Shown here: positions 321-12,492 of the stretch, one piece after another
Position numbering within the stretch: the first letter of the stretch is position 1
Layout of the letters: the number at the start of each line of letters is the position of its first letter
Assembly: GCA_964463155.1 (NCBI GenBank)
Contig: CAYXAY010000020.1
Span: 1-12,492 of the forward strand
Direction of reading: 5' to 3'
Length of the DNA: 12,492 bases
From: an uncultured archaeon
Lineage (GTDB): Archaea > Iainarchaeota > Iainarchaeia > Iainarchaeales > CSSED10-239
Program-made: the position numbers and the translations under genes
The notes under the pieces: model-generated
What the model saw: only the letters and a program-made list of their open reading frames with translations
What the model was told of the DNA's origin: nothing
Databases searched by the model: none

Positions 321-656
321 TTACTGCACTCCTTCTAAATCATCTAGGTTTTCTTGCTTGTCTTTGCTATCTTGCTTTGTTGCAGAATTGATTTTTTTAA
401 AAATAAGGTCTTCTTGCTTTTGTATGTTTTTTATCCTTAAGTCGATTGTATCTTTTAGGTCCTTTGTATCTTTTATGACATCTTCTTTGTCAGAAAGAAT
501 AAAGATATTTCCAACACCTTTGTAAACCTTCTTTTCCTTTGTCTTTTCTAACTCTTTAACTGTGTTATCAAGAACATTTATCTGAAATTGTAATTGTTGT
601 TTTTGCTGTGTTAAAAACAATAATCGCTGTCTATATACATTTGCATTTTCGCTCAT
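321..656 (-). CDS. pfdB: Prefoldin beta subunit
   Basis: 111-aa coiled-coil protein (..QQKQQLQFQINVLDNTVKELEKT..VYKGVGNIFI..). Last position of the exosome superoperon. Its start overlaps the upstream stop by ATGA. Confidence 0.8.
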   Translation of the reverse strand: MSENANVYRQRLLFLTQQKQQLQFQINVLDNTVKELEKTKEKKVYKGVGNIFILSDKEDVIKDTKDLKDTIDLRIKNIQKQEDLIFKKINSATKQDSKDKQENLDDLEGVQ

Positions 657-904
657 AAATCCACCTCATAAGTTTTTTTAATCAATTCTAAAAGATTAAT
701 GTAATTGTTTATTGTTGCTTTGTAGGCTGTTATGTCCTTACAATCTATGTTTATCTTTATTGCCTTTGGCTTTGCTAAAACCGTTATTTTTGAAGACGAT
801 CTTTTAAAGTCCTTTCTATTCATCTCAAGCTCTAAAAGCTCCTTTAGCTTTTTAGGGTTGCTAGTCTTTATTATCAATTCCTCTGAAATTATAGAACCAA
901 TCAT
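653..904 (-). CDS. pcc1: KEOPS subunit Pcc1-like small protein
   Basis: 83 aa. The C-terminal ITAYKATINNYINLLELI resembles the Pcc1 helix (..aLRAalNsylrwl..). It sits in the conserved slot between Brix and prefoldin beta, with ATGA overlaps on both sides. Confidence 0.6.
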   Translation of the reverse strand: MIGSIISEELIIKTSNPKKLKELLELEMNRKDFKRSSSKITVLAKPKAIKINIDCKDITAYKATINNYINLLELIKKTYEVDL

Positions 905-1335
905 AAACTTTCCTCTTTTATTTTAAAAGAAAAGAAAAGCTCCTTGTTTATTTCAAAGCTTATTGTGTTGTTCTCTTGCTTTGCCTTTGTTTCTGAATCT
1001 TTGTCAATTTCTTCAAGGAAATAAAATAATTTCCCTTTGGCATTGATGGTTGTTATCTTTTTCTTTGGTTTTTTGTAAAGGACATCTGTTATTGTGAATA
1101 ACTTCTCTGGGAAATATTCCTTATCTTTTCTTTTGTAGATTAATAATTTTATATTGTCTTTCTTTTTTCCCACAAGCAAAAGATGATTGTAGCCAATATA
1201 GTTTGATTTTTCAAAGATTTTTTTAAGTGTGGTTTCTCCTCTAGGTATGTGCCTTACTTCTGGAAGAAACTTAGCTAAATGCTTGCAAAATCTTTTTTGA
1301 AAAATCTTGGCGTTTCTTGAAGTCGTAATTATCAT
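901..1335 (-). CDS. Brix-domain (Imp4-like) ribosome biogenesis protein
   Basis: The N-terminus MIITTSRNAKIFQKRFCKHLAKFLP..IPRGETTLKKI matches the archaeal Brix signature (llTTSRkPs.r.r.f.keL....RGk.sl). Superoperon position supports the call. Confidence 0.75.
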   Translation of the reverse strand: MIITTSRNAKIFQKRFCKHLAKFLPEVRHIPRGETTLKKIFEKSNYIGYNHLLLVGKKKDNIKLLIYKRKDKEYFPEKLFTITDVLYKKPKKKITTINAKGKLFYFLEEIDKDSETKAKQENNTISFEINKELFFSFKIKEESL

Positions 1336-1464
1336 CTAGTCAGCCTTTACCTTCTTTACAACAGGCATTCTTTTCTTGTAAAATATTCTTCCTGAACAGC
1401 TTTTACATTTCTTGCTTTCTGGCATAGAATTGTAAACTTCATTACATTTTCCACAATAGTACAT
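1336..1464 (-). CDS. rpoP: DNA-directed RNA polymerase subunit P (Rpo12/RPC10), 42 aa; absent from the supplied ORF track
   Basis: Hand translation: MYYCGKCNEVYNSMPESKKCKSCSGRIFYKKRMPVVKKVKAD, a CxxC...CxxC zinc ribbon. AGGTGA SD overlaps the rpl37ae stop. The stop TAG at 1336-1338 abuts the Brix ATG. Expected superoperon slot between L37Ae and Brix. Confidence 0.75.
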   Translation of the reverse strand: MYYCGKCNEVYNSMPESKKCKSCSGRIFYKKRMPVVKKVKAD

Positions 1465-1472
1465 GATTTCAC

Positions 1473-1697
1473 CTATTGACCTGCTGTTTTGTATTTGTAA
1501 GCACCACCTGAAACCTTTGTCTTACATTTTTTGCATTGAAAGATTCCTGTTGCCACTCTTTTTATCTTGTCTTTTGTTCCACATTTTGGACAAACTTTTT
1601 TGCTTTTGTCCTCAATTGCTAGAAGGTATTTCTTTCTAATACCTACTCCCCCTCTTACTCCGTACTTTCCTGTCTTTTTAACTTTTTTTGTGTTCAT
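1473..1697 (-). CDS. rpl37ae: Ribosomal protein L37Ae (eL43)
   Basis: ..TGKYGVRGGVGIRKK..CPKCG..KRVATGIFQCKKCKTKVSGGAY. Typical eL43 zinc-ribbon sequence. Confidence 0.9.
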   Translation of the reverse strand: MNTKKVKKTGKYGVRGGVGIRKKYLLAIEDKSKKVCPKCGTKDKIKRVATGIFQCKKCKTKVSGGAYKYKTAGQ

Positions 1698-2503
1698 TTT
1701 TCTTCACATATTTTTGTTTTTATTTCTGAATATTTCTTTGTTGCGACATCCATTATCTGGTTGATGTCAGAAATCTTGAAGGTTCCGTTTCCTCCGCCTT
1801 TGTGATAAGCAACAACGGCGTTACCCACAACTCCTAGAGTAAACCTAGAGTCACTTGCTAAATCTTCAACCTCTGTTGCGTCAGCAAATAACTTGTTTTT
1901 TGATTTCCAGAAGGTAAAAGATACTGCTATCTTTTTTAGGTCGATATTGAGTTTCTTGTTTGTGTATTCTTTTAAAACTATGCTATTGTTCTCGTCAAGC
2001 TTTGGAATCTTACAATCAAGTAAAGCTGCCATTGCTGCGTATTGTCCAGCATCTATCAAATTACCGTCTGCATTTAAGGCATAACAATCAACATAGACAA
2101 TAAATGATTTTTCTCCAGTAACTATGTTTAAGTCTTTAAAATCAATACATTTTGAAGACCTTATTACTCTGTCAACAATTCTTCCATATTCCATAGCAGG
2201 AATACTTGGTGGTCCGGTGTCTATGTCTGCTGAGGCTATTCCTGACATCTCAAGATTAATCACTATTGAACCTTCGTTGGGAGAATCTGGATAAGGGGTT
2301 CCTACTACAAACTTTACGCCCGCAATAATTTCAGTATTGCCAAGCTTTGCCCATGCTGAGCCGTCTGCCGATGTCATTACTCCTCTTTTGATTTCAAGAG
2401 ACCTGTATTCTAATAAATCCCTATTGTCAAATCTTTTGTTTTCAAAAATTAATTTTCTTGCATTGTCTGATTTTAGTATCTTTAGAATATCTGTGTCACT
2501 CAT
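1694..2503 (-). CDS. rrp42: Exosome complex subunit Rrp42 (RNase PH-like, non-catalytic)
   Basis: RFDNRDLLEYRSLEIKRGVMTSADGSAWAKLGNTEIIAGVKFVVGTPYPDSPNEG is an RNase PH fold signature. ATGA overlaps with rrp41 and rpl37ae. Confidence 0.85.
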   Translation of the reverse strand: MSDTDILKILKSDNARKLIFENKRFDNRDLLEYRSLEIKRGVMTSADGSAWAKLGNTEIIAGVKFVVGTPYPDSPNEGSIVINLEMSGIASADIDTGPPSIPAMEYGRIVDRVIRSSKCIDFKDLNIVTGEKSFIVYVDCYALNADGNLIDAGQYAAMAALLDCKIPKLDENNSIVLKEYTNKKLNIDLKKIAVSFTFWKSKNKLFADATEVEDLASDSRFTLGVVGNAVVAYHKGGGNGTFKISDINQIMDVATKKYSEIKTKICEEK

Positions 2504-3207
2504 TGTATGTCACCTTCCATTGGATATTTTTCAACAAGCGCTTTTTTTTGAATCTCATATATTTTTTCTGCGCCTTTTAGAGCAGTTTCTAGGATTTTTG
2601 AACAATCTTTTTTGTCAACAAAACCATCCATTTGAAGAAGTGCAAGTTCTTGTTGTGGCATCAAAAAAGCACAAGCCATGTCAACAGCATCCTCTGTGTC
2701 CTCGTCTTCTTTGTCAAGATCAAGAACAAGCGCCCCATTTGCTCTTCCTGCTGCTACTGCGCTTATTAGTCCTTTCATTGGAAGACCCGCCTCAGCTACA
2801 GCTAAGCTTGCTGCTGTTAATGCTGCAACTCTCGTTCCTGCATCTGCTGAAAATATTAAAACATTAACATCTATCATTGTATTTGGGAATTGATCAACCA
2901 TTACTGCTGCTTCTAGAGCGTGACCTGAAACCAAGGAAATTTCTTTATCTCTTTTTCCAGGAACTGGTGATTTTCTTTCAGAAACAGAAAAGCTTGCCAT
3001 TCTGTATTTGTAGTCTATTATTGCTTTTGTAGGGTCTGCTAAATGTTTAGGGAAAACTGGTCTTGGACCGTTTACTGTTGCAACAACTATATTTTTGCCC
3101 CACTCTAAATAACAGGAACCATCTGCATTCTTTGCAATCCCAAGCTCAATCTTTATGGGACGCAACTCATCTAAAGACCTTCCATCTAGTCTTTTTGCAT
3201 TACTCAT
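2500..3207 (-). CDS. rrp41: Exosome complex exonuclease Rrp41 (RNase PH-like, catalytic)
   Basis: RLDGRSLDELRPIKIELGIAKNADGSCYLEWGKNIVVATVNGPR is the canonical Rrp41 N-terminus. GGAGAG SD upstream. Confidence 0.9.
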   Translation of the reverse strand: MSNAKRLDGRSLDELRPIKIELGIAKNADGSCYLEWGKNIVVATVNGPRPVFPKHLADPTKAIIDYKYRMASFSVSERKSPVPGKRDKEISLVSGHALEAAVMVDQFPNTMIDVNVLIFSADAGTRVAALTAASLAVAEAGLPMKGLISAVAAGRANGALVLDLDKEDEDTEDAVDMACAFLMPQQELALLQMDGFVDKKDCSKILETALKGAEKIYEIQKKALVEKYPMEGDIQ

Positions 3208-3221
3208 TTTTATCTCTCCTC

Positions 3222-3830
3222 TTATTGATTATTTTTTAAGTATTCTTCTATTGTGTTTGTAAGATTTGCTTTTTGCGAATTTCTAATTATCATTGAAATT
3301 GCATTTTCTAAAAGACCAGCGTTCTTTGAAACATACCAAATCCAGCCGTTTCTTCCAATTAAGATATTTGATTGAGTGTATTTCTTTAAGATGTTTAGCA
3401 TCGAATCGTTTTTTCCAATTATCCTTGGAATCTTTACTGAAGAAACCGAATAGATTAATCCGTCTGGAAGAATGTTAATGTTATCAAGCTCAGAAACATC
3501 GGCTCCATCTACTCCTTTTACTCTTGCAAAAAGAATCTGTCCAATCTTTAGTTCTTTTGTTATCAAAGACTTTGGAAAGAAACAATCGCTATGGGAATTT
3601 ACATCAATGATATAGCCATTTGCTGTGACATTTCTTACCACACAAACTATTGGATCGTTTTCTTGTGGGATATATGGCCCATTTAATGGAACTATAGAAA
3701 CAAAATCGTCTGTTTCATTTAATATGCCAAGAACTGAGCTGTGTATTTTTTCTTCAGTGATAAAAATATTTTCCCCAACTTTTTTTTTCTTATCTGTGAT
3801 TAACTCTCCAGGAACTACTATTCTTTTCAT
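3222..3830 (-). CDS. rrp4: Exosome RNA-binding subunit Rrp4 (N-terminal, S1 and KH domains)
   Basis: VVPGELI N-terminal motif, an S1-like segment NDPIVCVVRNVTANGYIIDV, and a KH-like segment ILIGRNGWIWY. Superoperon position supports the call. Confidence 0.85.
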   Translation of the reverse strand: MKRIVVPGELITDKKKKVGENIFITEEKIHSSVLGILNETDDFVSIVPLNGPYIPQENDPIVCVVRNVTANGYIIDVNSHSDCFFPKSLITKELKIGQILFARVKGVDGADVSELDNINILPDGLIYSVSSVKIPRIIGKNDSMLNILKKYTQSNILIGRNGWIWYVSKNAGLLENAISMIIRNSQKANLTNTIEEYLKNNQ

Positions 3831-3846
3831 TTATTTTCACTCTTTT

Positions 3847-4542
3847 TTATTTTAAAACATTGACTATTACTGACCCGTGCGTGATGTTGTTTAAATCAGT
3901 TAACAGTTTTGATTTTAGACCTATAGGCAAAGTCACCCTTGCAAACAATCCTCCGCTTGGTAGCCATTTTTCCTCAAGAATCTCATACTTGTGAAGAACA
4001 GGCATTAATTTTCCAGAGTATTGAGCAGTAACCTCAACTGACATAACAATCTTTTCCATAGAGATTGGCATTGCCTTTTTTAGAACAAGCATAACTTCGT
4101 TTAACTCGTCGTCTTTTTTTCTGGAAAGACTAAACTTAAATTTTGCGGATTCTAAAGCATTGAGAATTCTTTGTGGTGGTATTGGTGTCATATCTTTTGG
4201 GTCATGTGCATTTTTTGTTATAAAGTATATAATCTCGCTTTCTCTTCTTTTAAGCATCTCGTTTCTTTGTGATGTTGTTAATTGAACATCGCCGTCATGT
4301 ATTATTTTTTTTGCAATTGTCAAAAAATCAGTTGTCTGGAAAACTTCCTTTATCACTTCTTCTGAAGCCAGTTTTCCTTTTGCTGAATCTGAATAAACTT
4401 CTTCCATTGCAAACATCTCGTCAAAGTTTATTTCTGTTTTTCCGTGCTTGTAGTCCCAAGCCTTGTAAGGATCAACAAATATCTCAAAGCGGTGCCCATT
4501 TCTACTAAGTCTTGCAATTACTGCATCATCTAATTTTACCAT
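3847..4542 (-). CDS. sdo1: SBDS/Sdo1 family ribosome maturation protein
   Basis: MVKLDDAVIARLSRNGHRFEIFVDPYKAWDYKHG is the typical archaeal SBDS N-terminus. GGGGTGAT SD upstream. Confidence 0.85.
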   Translation of the reverse strand: MVKLDDAVIARLSRNGHRFEIFVDPYKAWDYKHGKTEINFDEMFAMEEVYSDSAKGKLASEEVIKEVFQTTDFLTIAKKIIHDGDVQLTTSQRNEMLKRRESEIIYFITKNAHDPKDMTPIPPQRILNALESAKFKFSLSRKKDDELNEVMLVLKKAMPISMEKIVMSVEVTAQYSGKLMPVLHKYEILEEKWLPSGGLFARVTLPIGLKSKLLTDLNNITHGSVIVNVLK

Positions 4543-4554
4543 TATTAATCACCC

Positions 4555-5280
4555 CTATAATAACTTTGAATATTTTTCTAAAGGAACTATAGCATCTTGA
4601 TCTCCGTTCTCTGCAATATTTATTACTTGTATGCTTTGAGGGTTTAGTTTTTGTTTTGGCTCAAGGTTTAAGGATATTGCTTTTATTGCAATTGTTAATG
4701 CTTCTTCAAAGCTTAGGTTTTCCTTGAAATTTTTCTCTAGATAGCCTATTATTTTTTGTTTGTTTTGGCCTATTGCTAATGCCTTGTAGGCGGTTATTGC
4801 TCCGCTTGGTTCTGCTTCAAATATATGCTTTCCTAAAGAATCGTAGCCCGCAATTATCAATGAAACACCAAATGGTCTTCCTCCGCCATATTGTGTGAAA
4901 TATTGCATTATTGATGCTATTTTTCTTACTAATGCTTCCACTTCAATTGGTTGATCGTAGTAGGTTCTGTTCTCTTGAGACATTTGTCTTGCAAAATCAA
5001 CTAGTCTTCTTCCGTCCCCTATTAGTCCTGCACAGGTTGTCCAGACATGGTTGTCTATCTTAAATACCTTTTCTACTGATTCTGGTAGAACCAAAGAAGA
5101 ATGGATTTTCTTGTCTGCCACTATTATTATGCCTTGCTTGTAGATTATTGCCACTGCTGGGCTTCCTTTTTCAATGATTTTGGAGGCATAGTCCACTTGA
5201 TAGAGATGTCCTTCTGGACTAAACATTGTTGTTGAACGATCATAGCCGGCAGCTGCTGCGCCAATAGCATTTGGAATCAA
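4555..5280 (-). CDS. psmA: Proteasome alpha subunit (TTG start)
   Basis: YDRSTTMFSPEGHLYQVDYA is the hallmark alpha-subunit motif and requires a start upstream of it. The only in-frame start is TTG at 5280-5278, preceded by GGTGA 6 nt upstream. Confidence 0.9.
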   Translation of the reverse strand: MIPNAIGAAAAGYDRSTTMFSPEGHLYQVDYASKIIEKGSPAVAIIYKQGIIIVADKKIHSSLVLPESVEKVFKIDNHVWTTCAGLIGDGRRLVDFARQMSQENRTYYDQPIEVEALVRKIASIMQYFTQYGGGRPFGVSLIIAGYDSLGKHIFEAEPSGAITAYKALAIGQNKQKIIGYLEKNFKENLSFEEALTIAIKAISLNLEPKQKLNPQSIQVINIAENGDQDAIVPLEKYSKLL

Positions 5281-5302
5281 ATTTATTCACCATTTTTAGA
5301 AT

Positions 5303-5325
5303 TTTTTAATATAAATATAAATGTG
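5303..5325 (-). promoter_or_regulatory. Candidate TATA/BRE region for the psmA-to-pfdB operon
   Basis: The minus strand reads TTTATATTTATATTAAAAAA about 25-40 nt upstream of the psmA SD and TTG. An AT-rich background makes this weak evidence. Confidence 0.3.
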
Positions 5326-5391
5326 TAAAACATAGTTATCTACTAAGAAATATTATGGATAAGAAGTATTTAAAAAGCTTAAGTTATTAAC

Positions 5392-5399
5392 AAAAAAAA
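5392..5399 (-). terminator. Oligo-T (T8) tract downstream of the membrane-protein gene
   Basis: A8 on the plus strand equals T8 on the minus strand, 18 nt after the stop at 5418-5420. Archaeal termination typically occurs at oligo-T tracts. Confidence 0.35.
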
Positions 5400-5417
5400 G
5401 AGAAATTGGCCGCTTTA

Positions 5418-5918
5418 TTAAAAAGCAGCTTTGGCTTCCTTGGAAAATATCAAGTAGCCTGCGATAAATCCGTAGATTACAATTCCTGCGATATTTGATA
5501 GGTCTCCAGTGAATAATAGACCTATAATTGCTCCAAAAAATGCAAGGCATGCAAGTATCATTATTACATATCTTGCCCAGTTTTTTAGCTTAAACAAACT
5601 TAAACCAAGATAAAATATGAAAGCACCCCATATTATTGCAAGAATTCCAATTATCAAAAAGAATGTTGGAGTATAGAATGCAAAAACTTGCGGACCTACT
5701 GTTGCTGTTGATTTCAATAAGTAATCATTTGCTTTCTTTGGAAAGATTATTATCAATACGCCAAACAGAAAGGCTAAGATTGAAACAATTATATAATATG
5801 TTGAAATTATCTTTATGCCTAGTGGTTTTGTGTGCTTTGTTTCTACTTTCTTTTCTACTGGTTTACTCGCGACTTTCTTTGCTAGCGCTTCTTCCGTAAT
5901 TTTCTTTTTTACTGCCAT
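5418..5918 (-). CDS. Small integral membrane protein: Lys-rich N-terminal tail plus about 4 TM helices, function unknown
   Basis: Four long hydrophobic stretches by eye: IISTYYIIVSILAFLFGVLIIIF, FFLIIGILAIIWGAFIFYLGL, YVIMILACLAFFGAIIGLLF and IAGIVIYGFIAGYLIF. AGGTGA SD lies inside the 3' end of the Pop5 gene. Confidence 0.6.
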   Translation of the reverse strand: MAVKKKITEEALAKKVASKPVEKKVETKHTKPLGIKIISTYYIIVSILAFLFGVLIIIFPKKANDYLLKSTATVGPQVFAFYTPTFFLIIGILAIIWGAFIFYLGLSLFKLKNWARYVIMILACLAFFGAIIGLLFTGDLSNIAGIVIYGFIAGYLIFSKEAKAAF

Positions 5919-5921
5919 TTT

Positions 5922-6251
5922 TTATTTCACCTTTTTTATTGTGCTTTTTATGTCTTTTACTTTTAGCAACCCTAGATCGGATTGAGCAAAAAACAAAGAC
6001 GCAATAAATGTATCTAAATATTCTTTGTTAATTCTTATTAATAACGTTTTGGTTTTTTGTTCAGTGTCAATAATTGTGATGTTTGTTTCAATTTGAGAAA
6101 ATATCCCACTTTGTTTTTGTAAGGCCTTGTAAAGTATTGTTTGCACTATCTTGGAATCTATTGGCTGGTTATAGGTAAGCAATTGCAATTGCAAATATCT
6201 TTTTTTGTGCCTTAAAGTCGGCTTTATTACTGCTAGTCTTTTCTTTTTCAT
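5922..6251 (-). CDS. rnp2: RNase P protein component 2 (Pop5 homologue)
   Basis: IKPTLRHKKRYLQLQL matches the Pop5 N-terminal signature (lPptlRekkRYl). About 110 aa. Follows Rpp30 with an ATGA overlap. Confidence 0.75.
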   Translation of the reverse strand: MKKKRLAVIKPTLRHKKRYLQLQLLTYNQPIDSKIVQTILYKALQKQSGIFSQIETNITIIDTEQKTKTLLIRINKEYLDTFIASLFFAQSDLGLLKVKDIKSTIKKVK

Positions 6252-6841
6252 ATATTTTCTGTTAATGTTCTTTTGATAAGTGGTTTTTCTAAATTAAAAT
6301 TTTTTAAAAACTCCTGAATAATAACAGGGTCAAGTAATTCATCTGCAGTTTTTGCATAGCTGATAAACTTAAACTCTATTTTGTGTTTTTCAAGTATTGG
6401 GATACTGAACTGCATCTGTTTGATTGATTTGTTCTGGTTGTTTCTTATCTGGTTTATGTTGAAGAAAAATAGTTTGTTGTTTTGCTTTGCTATTCTTGCT
6501 AATCCCTCGTCAATGCTGGTTTCCTGGACTATTGGGTCGAATAAATGGATAGGGATTTTGGTTGAGAGTATATTAGATATTGCTAGGATGTCCTTACCTT
6601 GTCCAAGAATTACTGTGTTTTTCGAAATAATTGATTTGCAGGTGTTTAAGAGATTGAGGTCTGTAAACAAAAGCGCTTTTCTAAATTGTTTTCCAGACGG
6701 CAAAGGATAATCTACATCTTCTTTTGTTTTTACTTCTTTAATCACATAAATTGTATAAATACCTAATTGTTCTAAATTCTTTGAAATATTCGGATATTTG
6801 AATAACTCACTTGAAACAAAATCAATATATTTTTCTTTCAT
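6248..6841 (-). CDS. rnp3: RNase P protein component 3 (Rpp30 homologue), divergent
   Basis: The size, the pattern YIDF..LGIYTIYV..VILGQG..IHLFDP..IAKQNNKLFFFNINQI..KFISYAKTADELLDP (compare Rpp30 yDl..lGy..v.gg..vDil.p..la..n.vafEi.l..itSgA.s..elr.P), and its position just upstream of Pop5. Confidence 0.6.
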   Translation of the reverse strand: MKEKYIDFVSSELFKYPNISKNLEQLGIYTIYVIKEVKTKEDVDYPLPSGKQFRKALLFTDLNLLNTCKSIISKNTVILGQGKDILAISNILSTKIPIHLFDPIVQETSIDEGLARIAKQNNKLFFFNINQIRNNQNKSIKQMQFSIPILEKHKIEFKFISYAKTADELLDPVIIQEFLKNFNLEKPLIKRTLTENI

Positions 6842-8542
6842 TTACATTTTCTCCGGAATTTCTATTCCTAAAAGCCATGTTGCATTTTCTAGTGTTTGCA
6901 AATAACTTATTATTAATGCAAGCCTTTGTTCTGTAAGTTCTTTGTCATCAGAGATAACTTGACAATTTCCATAGAACTTATTGAATGTGTGGGACAAGTC
7001 AAGACAGAAGCTAACAACGGCGTTTGGTTTTCTTTCTCTTGTCGCATATTCTGCCTTTGCTGGAAACTGCATAATCAAACTTAATAATTTCTTTTCATCA
7101 TTTTCTAGTTTTTTTGGACTAGGCACTTTTGTAAATTCTTTGAAATTTGCTTTTCGTAGAATGCTTTTTGCCCTAACTCCGCTGTATTGGACATATACTG
7201 AAGAGTCTCCTTGAAGATCAAGAGCTGAATTTATATCAAACACAAATGTCTTGTTAAAACCAATCTTTAACATCTCAAACTTTATTGTTCCAAAAACAAT
7301 TTTGTCAATTATGTCTTTGTCGTGCGCTAGGTTGTTTTCTGTTAGCACATCCTTTACTTTTTCCCTTAATATATCCCTTAAGTCTTCGTAAAGAACCATG
7401 CCACCTGCGCGCGAAGCCATTTTTCCACTAGAAAGATTGACCATCCCAAGAGACAAGTGTTCGTGAGTTGTGCTAGGATATACTTTTGAAAATAAATAAA
7501 ATAGTTGTCTAAAATAAAAATCCTGTTCAGAACCAACAACATAAATAAAATGATTGCATTTTGGAAACTTTTCTTTTTTTATTTGAACAAGAGCTATGTC
7601 TTTTGCGCCGTAAAGTGGTGCGCCATTCTTTTTTATTAATACCAAAACATCAAGCTTTTTGTCCTTCAAGTCAGCAATAACTGCATCATCGCTTTCTTGG
7701 ATTCTGTCTTTGTGTTCTTTAATAAAAGAATCTTTAATATCTAAAAATCTCTTTTCGGTTTCACTTTCAAATATTTTGTCGATAAGCTCTATTCCCAGTT
7801 CGTCTTTGACCTGCATGTATGCCATATAGCAGACATCTCTAAGCCTAGCTATTTCTTTTTGTAATTTTGGGTCAATTAAAATCTGTTTTTGTAAATTGTC
7901 TATTTCTTTTGTGGAGTTTTCATTAACTTTTGCCTTTTCTCCTGCAGCAATGTAAATTTCTCCAAACCATTTGGCGACATTAATTTTTGGAATATTTTGT
8001 TTTTCTTTTGGAAGTTGAAGATAATACCAGTACCACTTGGCAACATGCGTTCCTACATCTCCGCCATAATAAACCGGCCGTGGGTCGTATCCACAAAAAG
8101 AAAGAAGGCGATTTATTGAATCCCCACCAACAACCATTCTTAAATGTCCTACATGAAGCGTCTTGAAGGTATTGGCGTTAAATGTATCAATAACATATTG
8201 TTCTTTTTTACCAATATCTGATTTCCCATATTCTTTTTTTTTGTTTAAAACTTCAGAAATTGTTTCTTTGTAAAGTATATTGTTGTTAATTTTTACATTT
8301 ATGTAACCGGCAACGGAAACAAAATCAAAGATATTTTGCTTTTCTTTTTTTAGTTTTTCAACCAAGTCTTTGGAAATGTCTTGAGGTGATTTCTTCAGAT
8401 TCGTTGCTAAGGAAAAACAAGGAAAGGATAAATCTCCAAGTTCAAAATCTGGCGGCTCTTCTATTGTTTTAATAATTTCAGAAATGTCTTTATCAATAAC
8501 CTTTGAAAGGTCATTTGCAAATTTTTCTTTAAAGTTTATCAT
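6842..8542 (-). CDS. argS: Arginyl-tRNA synthetase
   Basis: Class I HIGH motif (TLHVGHLR), the ArgRS-type KMSKS substitute (GKMASRAGG), and an anticodon-binding C-terminus. I prefer the ATG at 8542 (AGGT SD 8 nt upstream) over the ORF-track TTG at 8548. The stop abuts the rnp3 ATG. Confidence 0.9.
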   Translation of the reverse strand: MINFKEKFANDLSKVIDKDISEIIKTIEEPPDFELGDLSFPCFSLATNLKKSPQDISKDLVEKLKKEKQNIFDFVSVAGYINVKINNNILYKETISEVLNKKKEYGKSDIGKKEQYVIDTFNANTFKTLHVGHLRMVVGGDSINRLLSFCGYDPRPVYYGGDVGTHVAKWYWYYLQLPKEKQNIPKINVAKWFGEIYIAAGEKAKVNENSTKEIDNLQKQILIDPKLQKEIARLRDVCYMAYMQVKDELGIELIDKIFESETEKRFLDIKDSFIKEHKDRIQESDDAVIADLKDKKLDVLVLIKKNGAPLYGAKDIALVQIKKEKFPKCNHFIYVVGSEQDFYFRQLFYLFSKVYPSTTHEHLSLGMVNLSSGKMASRAGGMVLYEDLRDILREKVKDVLTENNLAHDKDIIDKIVFGTIKFEMLKIGFNKTFVFDINSALDLQGDSSVYVQYSGVRAKSILRKANFKEFTKVPSPKKLENDEKKLLSLIMQFPAKAEYATRERKPNAVVSFCLDLSHTFNKFYGNCQVISDDKELTEQRLALIISYLQTLENATWLLGIEIPEKM

Positions 8543-8560
8543 AATCAATTACCTTTAAGG

Positions 8561-8633
8561 CGAGCCCGGAGGGATTCGAACCCTCGACCCACAGCTTAGA
8601 AGGCTGTTGCCCTATCCACTAGGCCACGGGCCC
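8561..8633 (-). tRNA. tRNA-Arg (anticodon UCU), 73 nt, no intron, CCA not encoded
   Basis: Folded by hand. Acceptor GGGCCCG/CGGGCTC (one G-U pair). D stem GCCT/GGGC with loop AGTGGATA. Anticodon stem ACAGC/GCTGT with loop CTTCTAA. Variable region GGGTC. T arm GAGGG-TTCGAAT-CCCTC. Discriminator G. Confidence 0.9.
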
Positions 8634-8687: not shown

Positions 8688-10067
8688 TTATTGTGCTATT
8701 TGATTTGTATCTTGGGGATATAATCTGTTGTATTGTTCCTCAAGATAAGCTATCGCTGTTAGGTGTTTGGAATAAACGCTATTGAATATGTTCGTATACA
8801 CATCGTTATTCTCTTTTTTTAATTCAAATAATGCTTGATGCATTTCTAGATATTTGCCTTGTTTTTCTACACATCTAGATACCAGTAATGGTTTAATCGC
8901 TGTTTGTTGATGTGATGGGACTGCAATGAAATCTTTTATGATTATTGCAACATCATCTGTCTCTAGGATTCTTTTTTGAGTTTCCGTCTCAAACTTTGCA
9001 CAGAAAGAACATTCAAAGTCAGTAAACACATACATCTTTACTGGAGAGCTGGTGTTACCCATTACAAAATCTCTGTTGTCTGCTAATAAGCTTGTATCAA
9101 GTATTTGTATTATGTCTGTTGGAATTATCTGAACTGCTTCTGACATTATTTCTTCATTAAACTGATAACCATTAGCATTTGTTTTTGCGAAGAGTCGATT
9201 AAATATTTGGCTATTGTTTTCATCTGTCAGTAATACAGATTCATCAACTTTTCCTTCTATGTAAAAGACAGGTATTTGTTTTGCGTCTATTGCCTCTAAT
9301 ATTTCTTTTCCTTTTGTGGAATCGTAGCTATATCTTTCTGTAGGCAAATCGAACATGTATTCAAAAAAGTTTGCAAGTTGTGGGTTTAGAGTTGTTTCAT
9401 TTTGTAAACTTGTAATTAATGTGTCTGTTCCGTCTTTTATATGTTGATGGTTTTCATTGTCTATAATTATTAGTTTTGCTGGAATTGTGGTGTTTGATTT
9501 GTATGTCTTATTTGTGTAATCTAATGAAAAGTTTGTTTTTGCATCATCTTTTGCTAAATTTATGTATTGTTTAAACACATTATAATCCTTAGCTCCTGAA
9601 ATCTTGTAGCTGCCAACAATTATCGCTGGCGTTCCTGTAATTTTTAGGTTTTGTGCTAACTCGCGGTCTGCCTGTATTTTTGAAATTATTTCATGGGCCG
9701 GATTTTCCATAATTTCTGCAATACAGGAATCAATTTGTGTTTTGTTTACGCCTATGTCCAAATATATTGGTTCAAACAATGCATTGTACCCTTCATCTAC
9801 TTCTGATTGCACTATTTCCCCTAATTCCTTTACTTTTATTTGGAATTCGTCCTCTGTTAAGTTAGTGTCTAATGTGGTTATTGAAATGTTATGGTCGTTT
9901 GTTTTTGTGGTTTTGTTTTTTGTAAGCATTACTGTTGCAAACACTGCCCCAATAATCAAGATAATTAGGATAATTATCCCTATTAGCCAAAAATTAATTT
10001 TTTGTTTTGGTATATGATTCACAACCTGGTCTTTGTGAACGATTTTGTGCGTTTTTTGTTTTTTCAA
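8688..10067 (-). CDS. Membrane-anchored extracytoplasmic thiol:disulfide oxidoreductase, DsbA/thioredoxin-like, multi-module (TTG start)
   Basis: N-terminal TM anchor FWLIGIIILIILIIGAVFATVML. CxxC active site FTDFECSFCAKF (C353/C356, nt 9000-9011). DsbA-type cis-Pro segment KITGTPAIIVGSYKISG (aa 142-157). TTG start at 10067 preceded by AGGTGAT. Confidence 0.7.
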   Translation of the reverse strand: MKKQKTHKIVHKDQVVNHIPKQKINFWLIGIIILIILIIGAVFATVMLTKNKTTKTNDHNISITTLDTNLTEDEFQIKVKELGEIVQSEVDEGYNALFEPIYLDIGVNKTQIDSCIAEIMENPAHEIISKIQADRELAQNLKITGTPAIIVGSYKISGAKDYNVFKQYINLAKDDAKTNFSLDYTNKTYKSNTTIPAKLIIIDNENHQHIKDGTDTLITSLQNETTLNPQLANFFEYMFDLPTERYSYDSTKGKEILEAIDAKQIPVFYIEGKVDESVLLTDENNSQIFNRLFAKTNANGYQFNEEIMSEAVQIIPTDIIQILDTSLLADNRDFVMGNTSSPVKMYVFTDFECSFCAKFETETQKRILETDDVAIIIKDFIAVPSHQQTAIKPLLVSRCVEKQGKYLEMHQALFELKKENNDVYTNIFNSVYSKHLTAIAYLEEQYNRLYPQDTNQIAQ

Positions 10068-10144
10068 AGTATCACCTTCTTATGCTTAACTATAAAAATT
10101 GTAATTATAATATATTATATGTATAGATAAAAATTTAAAAACAA
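10068..10144. promoter_or_regulatory. Divergent intergenic region (DsbA-like gene to the left, taw1 to the right) with several TATA-like boxes
   Basis: Contains aactataaaaatt, ataatatattatatgtatagataaaaatttaaaaa. There is no SD before taw1, so a leaderless or short-leader transcript is possible. Weak evidence in AT-rich DNA. Confidence 0.3.
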
Positions 10145-11155
10145 ATGGTTTTTATGGCAAAAAAATTAATTGATAAAAAGATATCTGATGATTTAAGGCA
10201 TAAGCATTATGCACTTATTGGAGAGCACTCTGCTGTTGAAATTTGTGAATGGAACAAGAAGGCTCTTAGAGGAGAAGGTGTTTGTTACAAACAGCAATTC
10301 TATAACATTGAGTGCCATAGATGCGCACAAATTACTCCTGCCGTTGTTTGGTGCCATAACAATTGTATTTTCTGTTGGAGACCTGCAGAATACATGACTA
10401 TGGATAAGTTTACTAAAGAATATTATGATGATTCTAAAAAAATAATTGATGAATTATTTGAACAAAGAAAGAAATTGCTTTCTGGTTTTGGGGGCTTTCC
10501 AAAGGTATCTAAGGCACTTTTAAAAGAAGCTGAGATTCCAAGTCATGTTGCTATTTCTCTTTCCGGAGAGCCAACGCTTTATAAGGATCTTTGGAGACTT
10601 ATTAAAGAACTTAAATCTAGAAAAGAAATCAAAAGCATCTTTGTTGTTACAAACGGTCTTGAGCCAACAACACTTGAAAGTCTTTCAAAACACAAAAGTC
10701 TTCCAACACAACTTTATCTTTCTTTTGTTGCTCCAAATAAAGAGCTTCATTTAAAGATTAATAAGCCAAAGATAAAATACTCTTGGGAAAGATTAATGAA
10801 AACTGTTTCCTTGTTCCCAAAATTAAAAACTAGAAAAGTTATAAGATTTACATTAATCAAAGGAATAAATGACAATAAAAAATACATTAAAAACTTTGTA
10901 AAAATCTTTGAAAAGACAAAGGCGGATTTTGTTGAGATTAAGGCCTATATGTTTTTGGGGTATTCTAGAAAGACTTTAAAGATAGAAAACATGCCCAGCT
11001 TTGATGATTGTTTGAAGTATGCTAAAGCTTTTGAGAAACTTTCAAAAAACTACAAGATATCAGACACTTGTAAGCCCTCAAGAATCATTCTTCTAAAAAA
11101 CAAGAAATCAAAAGTGGATAATTTTATAATTAAAAGAAAAAGAAAAAAGAAATGA
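10145..11155 (+). CDS. taw1: tRNA 4-demethylwyosine synthase Taw1/TYW1 (radical SAM)
   Basis: HSAVEICEWNKKALRGEGVCYKQQFYNIECHRCAQITPAVVWCHNNCIFCWRP matches the archaeal Taw1 signature: three auxiliary-cluster Cys plus the CxxxCxxC radical-SAM motif followed by WR. An alternative start at ATG 10154 is possible. Confidence 0.85.
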   Translation: MVFMAKKLIDKKISDDLRHKHYALIGEHSAVEICEWNKKALRGEGVCYKQQFYNIECHRCAQITPAVVWCHNNCIFCWRPAEYMTMDKFTKEYYDDSKKIIDELFEQRKKLLSGFGGFPKVSKALLKEAEIPSHVAISLSGEPTLYKDLWRLIKELKSRKEIKSIFVVTNGLEPTTLESLSKHKSLPTQLYLSFVAPNKELHLKINKPKIKYSWERLMKTVSLFPKLKTRKVIRFTLIKGINDNKKYIKNFVKIFEKTKADFVEIKAYMFLGYSRKTLKIENMPSFDDCLKYAKAFEKLSKNYKISDTCKPSRIILLKNKKSKVDNFIIKRKRKKK

Positions 11156-12030
11156 CAGAAATAAATGAATACCAAAAAGCAATAGTTGAAGCTTTGCAAA
11201 AAGAAAAGACCATTTGTCTTCTGGCTCCTAGCTTTCCAGTAGATTTTTCTTTCCCGGATATTGTTCTGGATCTTAGAAGACTTGGCTTTACAATGGTTGT
11301 TGAGCTGACTTATGCTGCAAAGCTTATCAATTACAAATATATTAGCACAATTAATGATAACCCAGAAAAACAATTTATTTGCGCAAACTGCCCAACAATT
11401 GTAAAACTTATAGAAAATCAATATCAAGAGCATAAAGACAAGATACTTGATGTGGCTTCTCCAATGATCGTCATGGCTAAATTTGTAAAAAGAGAATTTG
11501 GAGAAGATTATAAAACAATTTTTATAGGACCTTGCCTTGCTAAAAAACAAGAGGCTAAGGAGAATTCTGAAGTTATTGATTTTGCATTAACATTTAAAGA
11601 GCTTGTAGACATTTATGACTACTTAGAGGAAAACAAATTGCTTAAGGAGATAGATAATAACCCTGAAAACAAGCAATTCGACAAATTCTATAATGATGTG
11701 ACAAAGATTTATCCTCTTGGTGGAGGAGTTACAAGTAATTTGATAACGAAAGATATTCTTAATCTTGATGAAGTCATTGTTTGCGATGGCCCTCATTGTA
11801 TTGAAAAAGCAATGTTTGATTTTACAAACAACAAGAGACATAGATTTTTAGATATCCTTTTCTGCGAGGGCGGTTGTCTTGGCGGTCCAGGAATTATTTC
11901 AAAGGAAGATTTAGAACCCAAAAAACAAAGGATATTTGATTATAAAGATAAATCGAGATATTATCAACCAGATAAAAACTATGGTAAGTTCGTTCACGCT
12001 TTCGGTCTTGATATTAAAAGAAAAAAGTGA
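11152..12030 (+). CDS. Stand-alone [FeFe]-hydrogenase large-subunit H-domain homologue, 292 aa (minimal HydA-like or Nar1-like FeS protein)
   Basis: Four motifs occur in the order found in H-domains. LAPSFPV compares with APavR. FICANCP (C77, C80) compares with L1 TSCCP. IGPCLAKKQEA (C128) compares with L2 MPCxxKKxE. ILFCEGGCLGGPG (C238, C242) compares with L3 ExMxCxxGCxxGGGQ. There is no N-terminal ferredoxin-like domain. The start overlaps the taw1 stop (ATGA). Confidence 0.65.
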   Translation: MTEINEYQKAIVEALQKEKTICLLAPSFPVDFSFPDIVLDLRRLGFTMVVELTYAAKLINYKYISTINDNPEKQFICANCPTIVKLIENQYQEHKDKILDVASPMIVMAKFVKREFGEDYKTIFIGPCLAKKQEAKENSEVIDFALTFKELVDIYDYLEENKLLKEIDNNPENKQFDKFYNDVTKIYPLGGGVTSNLITKDILNLDEVIVCDGPHCIEKAMFDFTNNKRHRFLDILFCEGGCLGGPGIISKEDLEPKKQRIFDYKDKSRYYQPDKNYGKFVHAFGLDIKRKK

Positions 12031-12062: not shown

Positions 12063-12079
12063 AAATCGCTTCGCGATTT
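12063..12079. repeat. Short hairpin AAATCGC-TTC-GCGATTT in the IS right-end region
   Basis: Read directly. Its CGCGAAGCG core (minus strand) resembles the 208-222 hairpin core. Confidence 0.4.
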
Positions 12080-12089
12080 AATGTTTATT

Positions 12090-12136
12090 GGGAGCCCTTA
12101 TCTGCACACAAGTGTGCAGTATTACAAGCGGCTCCC
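12090..12136. repeat. Nested subterminal hairpin of IS copy 2 (right end)
   Basis: Outer stem gggagcc (12090-12096) pairs with ggctccc (12130-12136). Inner stem ctgcacac (12102-12109) pairs with gtgtgcag (12112-12119). Homologous to 267-304. Confidence 0.55.
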
Positions 12137-12139
12137 TTA

Positions 12140-12492
12140 TTAATTAATTTGCATGTAACTGCTCATACTTTTTTTTCCGTCGTTAATATATTTTCTTACT
12201 GTTTCTACAGTTACTTTTCCTATACTTTCGTAATAGGTATACTTGCTCCAGAAATGTCCTTTGGGATATTTTTTTTTAAATCCAGGAAAGATTGTAAAAA
12301 TGTTATGTGCTGTGTTTGACTTCAACAAGCAGATTGCTTGTCGTATGCACATAGTTGTTGGCAATTCAAGAAACAGATGTATCTGATCAACATCTGTTTC
12401 TTGTGTATGGATTTTTATGTTATATTTTTAAGATACAACATTAAAAATGTCTTTTACTATTTCGCTCATAAAAACATTACAAAATGTATTAT
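12140..12492 (-). pseudogene. tnpA: tnpA (IS200-type Y1 transposase) with an in-frame TAA and a mutated HUH motif
   Basis: Hand translation in a single frame: ..NTFCNVFMSEIVKDIFNVVS*KYNIKIHTQETDVDQIHLFLELPTTMCIRQAICLLKSNTAHNIFTIFPGFKKKYPKGHFWSKYTYYESIGKVTVETVRKYINDGKK.. It aligns with IS608 TnpA (..VEIIEMQTDKDHIHILADIDP...LWTNSCFISTVG...VKQYIENQ). The stop codon is at 12428-12430, where copy 1 has CAA. HUH reads Q-I-H. Confidence 0.65.
12367..12403. repeat. Perfect 13-bp inverted repeat (14 bp with one extra T-A pair) inside the tnpA coding sequence
   Basis: caagaaacagatg (12367-12379), then the 11-nt spacer tatctgatcaa, then catctgtttcttg (12391-12403). It spans the codons for QETDVDQIHLFL, which is the HUH region. 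Confidence 0.7.

Follow-up and report, generated by a model that had tools for sequence, protein, structure and literature searches.

The window analysed here, the entire 12,492-bp contig CAYXAY010000020.1 of an uncultured Iainarchaeota archaeon (GC about 30-38%), carries only two genes on its plus strand, taw1 and hydA, and together they make up what is, to judge by sequence, a conserved bicistronic and translationally coupled operon of Iainarchaeota-type DPANN archaea. The first encodes a radical S-adenosylmethionine (radical-SAM) enzyme of tRNA wyosine synthesis and the second a minimal [FeFe]-hydrogenase, and we consider the latter a plausible redox partner of radical-SAM enzymes, though not one specific to Taw1; the mechanism that we describe is put forward as a proposal. 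A first-pass annotation of the same DNA had put forward the hydrogenase-like protein as a candidate dedicated redox partner of Taw1, a reading that we widen to radical-SAM enzymes and hold to be plausible rather than likely. Both gene families are already known, the hydrogenase family having been published in 2024; new here are the repeated association of this hydrogenase clade with radical-SAM genes, which we did not find in the literature searched, and a sister clade in bacteria of the SR1 lineage. The features of the locus are:

10068..10144 (77 nt), between strands: AT-rich spacer from which the DsbA-like gene (minus) and taw1 (plus) diverge, from the open reading frame (ORF) map and the sequence
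10145..11155, plus strand: taw1, predicted radical-SAM 4-demethylwyosine (imG-14) synthase, 336 amino acids (TIGR03972, PF04055, PF08608)
11152..11155, plus strand: ATGA stop/start overlap in the sequence, taw1 TGA at 11153-11155 and hydA ATG at 11152-11154
11152..12030, plus strand: hydA, predicted group E "ultraminimal" [FeFe]-hydrogenase, 292 amino acids (PF02906 only)
12063..12079, plus strand: GC hairpin with a T-rich tail behind it, 33 nt past the hydA stop (terminator-like scan, consensus match only)
12140..12440, minus strand: remnant of an IS200/IS605-type Y1 transposase gene (PF01797 on the ORF 12140..12364), a boundary outside the system

The junction reads ...aagaaATGAcag..., the two genes sharing the four bases ATGA, just as the first-pass annotation had described it and as the two ORFs bear out. 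Neither a GGAGG-type Shine-Dalgarno sequence nor a gap precedes the second ATG in the junction sequence, also in agreement with that description, and the overlap is predicted to couple the translation of hydA to that of taw1. The pair is isolated on its strand, as had been claimed: on one side lies the AT-rich spacer, presumed to be the promoter region of the operon, with the divergent DsbA-like gene beyond it, and on the other the hairpin, likely the end of the transcription unit. What had been called the end of an insertion sequence (IS) on that side was a reasonable description, the actual feature being a truncated and interrupted IS200-type transposase gene.

Taw1 scores 349.9 bits against NCBIfam TIGR03972 (rSAM_TYW1; cutoff 317.95), matches Radical_SAM (PF04055, E=4.9e-18) and, in its C-terminal part, Wyosine_form (PF08608, 66.5 bits), and aligns end to end with the solved TYW1 structures of P. 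horikoshii (2YX0, 281 bits) and M. jannaschii (6DJT/2Z2U, 210 bits). In the alignment, the SAM-cluster CxxxCxxC motif C70/C74/C77 corresponds to C62/C66/C69 of the M. jannaschii enzyme, and C34/C47/C60 with K49 to its C26/C39/C52 and K41, which we take, from the work on 6DJT, to be the auxiliary-cluster ligands and the lysine that forms a Schiff base with pyruvate. With all cluster cysteines and the Schiff-base lysine kept, the protein is predicted to be a bona fide 4-demethylwyosine synthase with two [4Fe-4S] clusters. The domain search detected no flavodoxin domain, as expected for archaea. An alternative start is available at a second ATG (10154), and the database entry P0270 uses it (333 amino acids).

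HydA is a single-domain protein in which PF02906 (Fe_hyd_lg_C) aligns over profile positions 3-245 of 245 and nothing else in Pfam matched. Its AlphaFold2 model has a pLDDT of 95.6, and among the 50 best Foldseek matches listed from the PDB all are [FeFe]-hydrogenases (catalytic domains; TMq 0.68-0.78). It is 53% identical to a 286-residue protein of Ca. Forterrea multitransposorum (P0040; locus L006 in our own numbering, which is used throughout). The "HydA-like" iron-sulfur protein of the first-pass annotation is no orphan: consisting of the H-domain only, it is a member of group E, the "ultraminimal" [FeFe]-hydrogenases that Greening et al. (2024, Cell; PMC11216029) defined in DPANN archaea, with a mean of 286 residues the smallest iron hydrogenases known. 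There, the enzymes are presented as monomeric, fermentative and ferredoxin-oxidising; the Forterrea enzyme, expressed and loaded with a synthetic [2Fe] cofactor, is reported to give the Fourier-transform infrared (FTIR) signatures of an H-cluster and to produce H2 in vitro; and a full set of HydEFG maturases is reported for 5 of 130 hydrogenase-encoding archaeal genomes, the closed Forterrea genome having none.

Conservation of the active site was read from 27 aligned representatives of the minimal HydA proteins, with equivalences from an alignment to CpI of C. pasteurianum. The H-cluster ligands C80, C128, C238 and C242 (C300, C355, C499 and C503 of CpI) are invariant in 27/27, as are K131 and E134 (K358 and E361 of CpI) and likewise the positions of A25-P26 and F124/P127. 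The canonical proton-relay cysteine C299 of CpI is absent, its place being taken by N79 in the window and by A, V, P or T in other minimal HydA clades, while G126 and L236 replace M353 and M497. The cluster-binding site is intact and the second sphere differs from that of prototypical group A enzymes. Absence of C299 does not exclude membership of group E, because group E is itself reported, in the main text of its description, to differ in proton-transfer residues (PMC11216029).

We first scanned the GTDB with one genome for each species and obtained eight archaeal loci with the hydrogenase; in 8/8 taw1 lies immediately upstream of hydA on the same strand, with junctions of +1, 0, +4, 0, +15, +13, +15 and +16 nt (-4 in the window). 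With additional look-ups and a scan of metagenomes, about 100 loci were collected; we called their genes ourselves, and after clustering and dereplication (95% HydA identity) 27 informative archaeal loci remained. Related loci stem from metagenome-assembled genomes named Ca. Iainarchaeum, "ainarchaeum" and Ca. Forterrea multitransposorum, and by this similarity the window would most likely come from a DPANN archaeon of the Iainarchaeota (Diapherotrites). A neighbourhood survey had been suggested by the first-pass annotation as a check on chance adjacency, and the arrangement is not unique to this genome: every related archaeal locus retrieved has it, with taw1 as the gene directly before hydA in 23/27 and one unannotated gene between them in the other 4/27 (L035/36; L053, L075, L054). 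Junctions in the relatives measure -4, 0, +1, +4, +7, +10 or +13 to +21 nt and are rarely larger (mostly -4 to +38), and in the Forterrea locus L006, which encodes the enzyme studied biochemically, taw1 stands 13 nt upstream of hydA in the same operon. The pairing persists in relatives down to about 45-50% HydA identity. The gene downstream of hydA, for its part, belongs to 16 different families in 26 loci, the commonest being RadA (6).

The same hydrogenase clade in bacteria

About half of the close HydA homologs (~50% identity) come from SR1/Absconditabacteria, bacteria of the candidate phyla radiation (CPR) that use genetic code 25, and their hyd genes (L014, L015, L021, L042 and other code-25 loci) have UGA read as glycine within the gene. 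Bacteria are not known to have a wyosine pathway. The CPR hyd gene usually lies between a gene for a methylthiotransferase of the MiaB/RimO family and a HemW/HemN-like radical-SAM gene. The methylthiotransferase reaches 284.9 bits with TIGR00089 (cutoff 251) and has RimO as its best model at 327 bits, under the equivalog cutoff of 357; the HemW-like protein reaches 172 bits with TIGR00539, under the cutoff of 205. The commonest order is UvrB-RimO-HydA-HemW, and in another subclade (L021, L050, L071, L077) it is UvrB-HydA-RimO, RimO having switched sides and stayed adjacent. As these bacterial orthologs pair with RimO-like and HemW-like enzymes, and as related DPANN archaea have taw1 without hyd, the idea that the hydrogenase is dedicated to Taw1 is too narrow. 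The existence of a bacterial sister clade to the archaeal group E HydA implies transfer between DPANN and CPR, two episymbiotic lineages; the main text of Greening et al. describes its group E sequences from archaea as monophyletic and makes no mention of a bacterial sister clade (PMC11216029).

Neighbour enrichment was counted over 61 dereplicated loci. Radical-SAM-like genes make up 22/50 of the immediate neighbours of hyd in archaea against 0/111 of the genes three or more positions away, and 30/60 against 5/79 in CPR. The five distant CPR cases lie at positions 3 to 5, and most look like the usual neighbours displaced by inserted genes; one of them is in fact archaeal, the taw1 of L054, whose locus had been wrongly assigned to code 25. 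Genetic linkage of the kind expected for a cognate reductant of a radical-SAM enzyme (cf. the flavodoxin domain of TYW1, and Dph3) was found both as the operon in 23/27 archaeal loci, the two genes being at most two to three genes apart in 27/27, and as RimO/HemW linkage in most CPR loci.

Proposed electron supply to radical-SAM enzymes and competing explanations

Radical-SAM enzymes form a class of more than 100,000 members. Only in a couple of systems has the physiological electron donor been identified (PMC8941971). Group E hydrogenases, for their part, are a recent discovery whose description leaves their physiological role open (PMC11216029), and the genetic link reported here concerns both fields. 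Eukaryotic TYW1 can draw on NAD(P)H by way of a fused flavodoxin domain (PMC8941971). We postulate that HydA could be a small redox module serving radical-SAM enzymes in general and not Taw1 alone. Its H-cluster would be solvent-exposed and free of relay clusters, so that it might dock directly on a radical-SAM enzyme and deliver the single low-potential electron that takes the SAM-binding [4Fe-4S] cluster from 2+ to 1+. The electron could derive from H2 where the [2Fe] subsite is in place; alternatively, the [4Fe-4S]H cluster might mediate electrons from ferredoxin. The taw1-hydA operon would then play the part that in eukaryotic TYW1 falls to the fused flavodoxin domain.

A functional tie between HydA and radical-SAM chemistry is argued for by the adjacency in archaea taken together with the linkage of the same clade to other radical-SAM enzymes in CPR. 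In favour of the redox module we further count the anatomy of the operon (ATGA overlap, short junctions), in which taw1 is kept while the downstream genes vary; the recurrence across domains, with RimO on either side, and the enrichment among immediate neighbours; and the departures from prototypical high-flux group A enzymes (N for C299, G for M353, L for M497), which may fit such a role. Taw1 and RimO moreover belong to a group of five classical radical-SAM enzymes in which a second [4Fe-4S] cluster has an open site (PMC5352715), the cognate reductants of radical-SAM enzymes at large are mostly unknown and the flavodoxin fusion of TYW1 offers a precedent (PMC8941971), and most archaeal genomes with [FeFe]-hydrogenases, the closed Forterrea genome included, lack HydEFG according to the main text of PMC11216029. 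On balance, that HydA feeds electrons to radical-SAM enzymes generally is the best of the explanations weighed here, one to which we give somewhat less than an even chance. The bolder form, in which the group E hydrogenase of DPANN and SR1/Absconditabacteria would be a dedicated "radical-SAM reductase" that activates Taw1, RimO and HemW directly with electrons from H2 or from its own [4Fe-4S] cluster, seems to us rather unlikely, if worth stating.

Several observations weigh against the proposal. At the low H2 levels of natural environments, the H+/H2 couple lacks the reducing power that typical radical-SAM clusters call for and does not bring them to [4Fe-4S]1+ to a large extent, although the irreversible cleavage of SAM can pull the reaction despite this. 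Co-evolution gives a weak signal: the mirror-tree correlation of Taw1 with HydA is r=0.81 against 0.72 and 0.65 with a DsbA-like control (partial r=0.65; 15 taxa, control saturated). The distant minimal HydA clades (36-45% identity) pair with a multi-transmembrane (multi-TM) protein of ~190 amino acids, with a ferredoxin and a glutaredoxin-like gene, or with housekeeping genes, for which reason we reject a universal radical-SAM link of all minimal HydA proteins.

The remaining objections are at the same time the case for co-transcription without partnership, in which HydA would be a monomeric fermentative hydrogenase that reoxidises ferredoxin reduced by pyruvate:ferredoxin oxidoreductase (PFOR) and releases H2, its position after taw1 being a historical accident in a compact syntenic lineage and the bacterial RimO/HemW site a second accident, by insertion into a pre-existing block. 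The whole archaeal neighbourhood, Pop5-Rpp30-ArgRS-Dsb / taw1-hyd, is syntenic across the clade, and the divergent Dsb-taw1 junction is kept in 16/20 (the dereplicated relatives with taw1 directly before hyd and the gene upstream of taw1 visible), almost as conserved as taw1-hyd, so that in evolutionary terms the archaeal conservation is worth about a single event. Some lineages carry unrelated genes inserted between the two (the 4/27 loci above), which means that direct translational coupling is dispensable. Other DPANN taw1 loci, with Taw1 50-54% identical to that of the window, have no hydrogenase or redox gene alongside; their neighbours encode unannotated non-iron-sulfur proteins, and the idea that taw1 is paired with another redox partner in these hyd-less archaea was dropped, none having been seen. 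In bacteria, a hyd-less Gracilibacterium has RimO and HemW about 1.5 kb apart and a second hyd-less code-25 relative (a metagenome contig) has UvrB-x-RimO-MetK; since RimO...HemW and UvrB-x-RimO thus exist without hyd, the bacterial radical-SAM cluster predates hyd or is independent of it, and the notion that radical-SAM genes aggregate around hyd in CPR is weakened. No HydA/radical-SAM fusion was found among 269 HydA homologs (phmmer with Taw1, RimO and HemW seeds; CxxxCxxC in long proteins), nor a HydA fusion among the best 120 Taw1 homologs, all of which carry PF04055+PF08608 only. Finally, Forterrea encodes PFOR and ferredoxin, sufficient for the published fermentative role (PMC5905446), and its enzyme makes H2 in vitro according to the main text of PMC11216029.

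Against an accident, however, stand two independent placements beside radical-SAM genes in different domains of life, involving three radical-SAM families, the presence of RimO on either side of hyd in different subclades, and the strong enrichment at the immediately adjacent positions over more distant ones. Radical-SAM genes are a small minority of the genes in such small genomes, which makes a double chance adjacency improbable, and the active-site substitutions are atypical for high-flux fermentative enzymes. We regard this explanation as quite possible, though on the whole doubtful.

A second alternative, which we hold to be decidedly unlikely, is that without HydEFG the protein holds only its [4Fe-4S] cluster and works like eukaryotic Nar1/CIAO3, a factor for cluster delivery that derives from a hydrogenase, in the insertion or repair of the labile open-site clusters of Taw1, RimO and HemW. 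Eukaryotic TYW1 and the methylthiotransferases are clients of the cytosolic iron-sulfur protein assembly (CIA) machinery. The absence of maturases from most archaeal hydrogenase genomes, as given in the main text of PMC11216029, would suit this role, as would the second three-cysteine cluster with a free site in Taw1 and RimO, the auxiliary clusters of RimO/MiaB being consumed or remodelled (PMC5352715), and the SUF operon (SufC, SufB, SufD, IscU-like) that abuts the hyd stop in convergent orientation in the Forterrea subclade. That adjacency, however, is confined to one subclade and, being convergent, is not co-transcribed. HydA also lacks the N-terminal ferredoxin-like cluster domain of Nar1, and we rejected membership of the Nar1 family on domain architecture, the H-domain starting from residue ~20 with no N-terminal cysteine motif. 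The H-cluster pocket residues P26/S27, K131 and E134 are kept invariant, and for the Forterrea ortholog the binding of [2Fe]adt, the FTIR signals of an H-cluster and H2 production are all reported (PMC11216029).

The reverse dependence, with the neighbouring radical-SAM enzymes replacing the missing HydE and HydG and helping to build the [2Fe] subsite, would draw on HydE and HydG being radical-SAM enzymes, on the alternative maturation route postulated in the main text of PMC11216029 for archaea without HydEFG and on the almost constant presence of a radical-SAM gene beside hyd, but it is very improbable, because the neighbours are different housekeeping families in the two lineages (Taw1; RimO-like and HemW-like) where a maturase would be expected to be the same everywhere, and Taw1 scores above its equivalog cutoff and still has the Wyosine_form domain, which is specific to tRNA, along with every residue for the tRNA reaction.

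If HydA is indeed a reductase for radical-SAM enzymes, hydrogenases would gain a new physiological role, a housekeeping one in tRNA and ribosome modification, and radical-SAM enzymes would have their first cognate activating system that uses no flavin and is conserved in two domains of life. It would also explain why genome-minimal symbionts retain a hydrogenase without maturases, and would offer a compact H2-driven activating module for radical-SAM biocatalysis. If it is not, the pair is a clean example of streamlined-genome synteny mimicking functional coupling. Testing the link would be cheap: expression and in vitro maturation of the Forterrea hydrogenase have been achieved, and there are established assays for Taw1.

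Genomic surroundings of the operon and of its relatives

The minus strand carries nearly all other genes of the window, an archaeal information-processing block. Its part at 321-6841 is the classical archaeal exosome/proteasome/RNase P super-operon, from prefoldin beta through Rrp42, Rrp41, Rrp4, SBDS, proteasome alpha and Pop5 to a probable Rpp30, and holds several stop/start overlaps, so that tight gene coupling is common in this genome. It is followed by the arginyl-tRNA synthetase gene (6842-8548, minus), with a tRNA-Arg(TCT) at 8559-8633 (minus) in front; the synthetase and one of its substrate tRNAs appear to be co-transcribed, since they lie on the same strand 10 nt apart. The gene divergent from taw1 (8688-10067, minus) encodes a membrane-anchored DsbA-like double-thioredoxin protein of 459 amino acids, with an N-terminal anchor and two thioredoxin-fold regions (DSBA-like at residues 101-169, Thioredoxin_4 at residues 332-421), an extracytoplasmic disulfide oxidoreductase being unexpected in an obligate anaerobe with a minimal genome.

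Past the operon, the transposase ORF 12140..12364 (minus) matches the C-terminal part of PF01797 (E=2.3e-10, profile positions 60-120 of 121); the translation of its frame has an internal stop, and the truncated, interrupted gene heads towards the contig end. A nested palindrome at 12091-12136 (GGGAGCC...CTGCACAC/GTGTGCAG...GGCTCCC) lies between the terminator hairpin and this remnant, and a perfect 14-nt inverted repeat at 12367-12403 beside it, just past the start of the ORF; both look like end structures of IS200/IS605 elements. The position downstream of the pair is an insertion hotspot, the IS remnant of the window included: several relatives (L001, L002, L024-L027) have a MazF/PemK-type toxin gene with a small partner ORF convergent just after hydA, and others have RadA there. 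In the Forterrea subclade (L006 6862-10380; also L005, L007, L008, L038-L040) the SUF operon converges on hydA and meets its stop codon at a distance of 3 nt or with 4 nt shared, its genes encoding a SufC-like ABC ATPase, SufB, SufD and an IscU/NifU_N-like scaffold.

The genes inserted between taw1 and hydA belong to two lineages and two kinds. One (L075 3211-3987, L053, L054) shares 8 nt with hydA and encodes a protein of 258 amino acids whose glycine-rich loop is kinase-like; the other (L035 3423-4001) encodes a protein of 192 amino acids, and neither product has a Pfam match. The HydA proteins of the distant clades are paired with the unannotated ~190-residue multi-TM protein, probably the "hyd6TM" of Greening et al., at L080/L090 3700-5460 and in L084, L089, L091, L093, L095 and L102, the reading frames often overlapping; in L080/L090 the minimal HydA and the membrane protein also follow a single-cluster ferredoxin and a glutaredoxin-like gene, and L035/L036 hold both taw1 and the membrane protein. 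Among the hyd-less code-25 relatives, L107 (5001-7895) has its RimO-like gene followed by that of the SAM synthetase MetK, a pair of a radical-SAM enzyme and its SAM supply.

Comparison with known systems

The closest relative is the Forterrea group E enzyme, which shares with HydA the H-domain-only build (about 286-292 residues), the same four cluster cysteines and altered proton-relay residues. Greening et al., in contrast, treat that enzyme as a stand-alone, fermentative and ferredoxin-oxidising one; their main text does not bring up its radical-SAM neighbours, and taw1, TYW1, wyosine, tRNA and radical SAM are absent from it in this context (PMC11216029). Full-text literature searches likewise returned no paper on a hydrogenase-TYW1 link or a hydrogenase-RimO/Absconditabacteria link.

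Like Chlamydomonas HydA1, a minimal M1 enzyme that docks on the ferredoxin PetF, the HydA of the window has no accessory clusters, and a partner must dock next to [4Fe-4S]H. It differs in being about 165 residues shorter, with condensed loops and Asn for C299, and in its proposed partner, which would be a radical-SAM enzyme and not a ferredoxin. Nar1/CIAO3 is also a hydrogenase-fold protein, and HydA, like it, may work without HydEFG; the clients of Nar1 include TYW1 and methylthiotransferases. HydA, however, lacks the N-terminal cluster domain and keeps the H-cluster pocket, and its ortholog is catalytically competent when given a [2Fe] subsite.

On the side of Taw1, the single-domain enzymes of M. 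jannaschii (MJ0257) and P. horikoshii (PH1705) have the same catalytic residues, all conserved in the window, but are not known to be encoded with a hydrogenase; the physiological reductant of archaeal Taw1/TYW1 is not established (PMC8941971). Eukaryotic TYW1, with its N-terminal flavodoxin_1 domain (Young & Bandarian 2021), resembles the pair in tying the enzyme to a low-potential one-electron carrier, by fusion there and, as we propose, by an overlapping operon here. The carrier here would be an iron-sulfur/H-cluster protein from a separate gene and not a flavin mononucleotide domain, and no fusion of the two turned up among the homologs searched.

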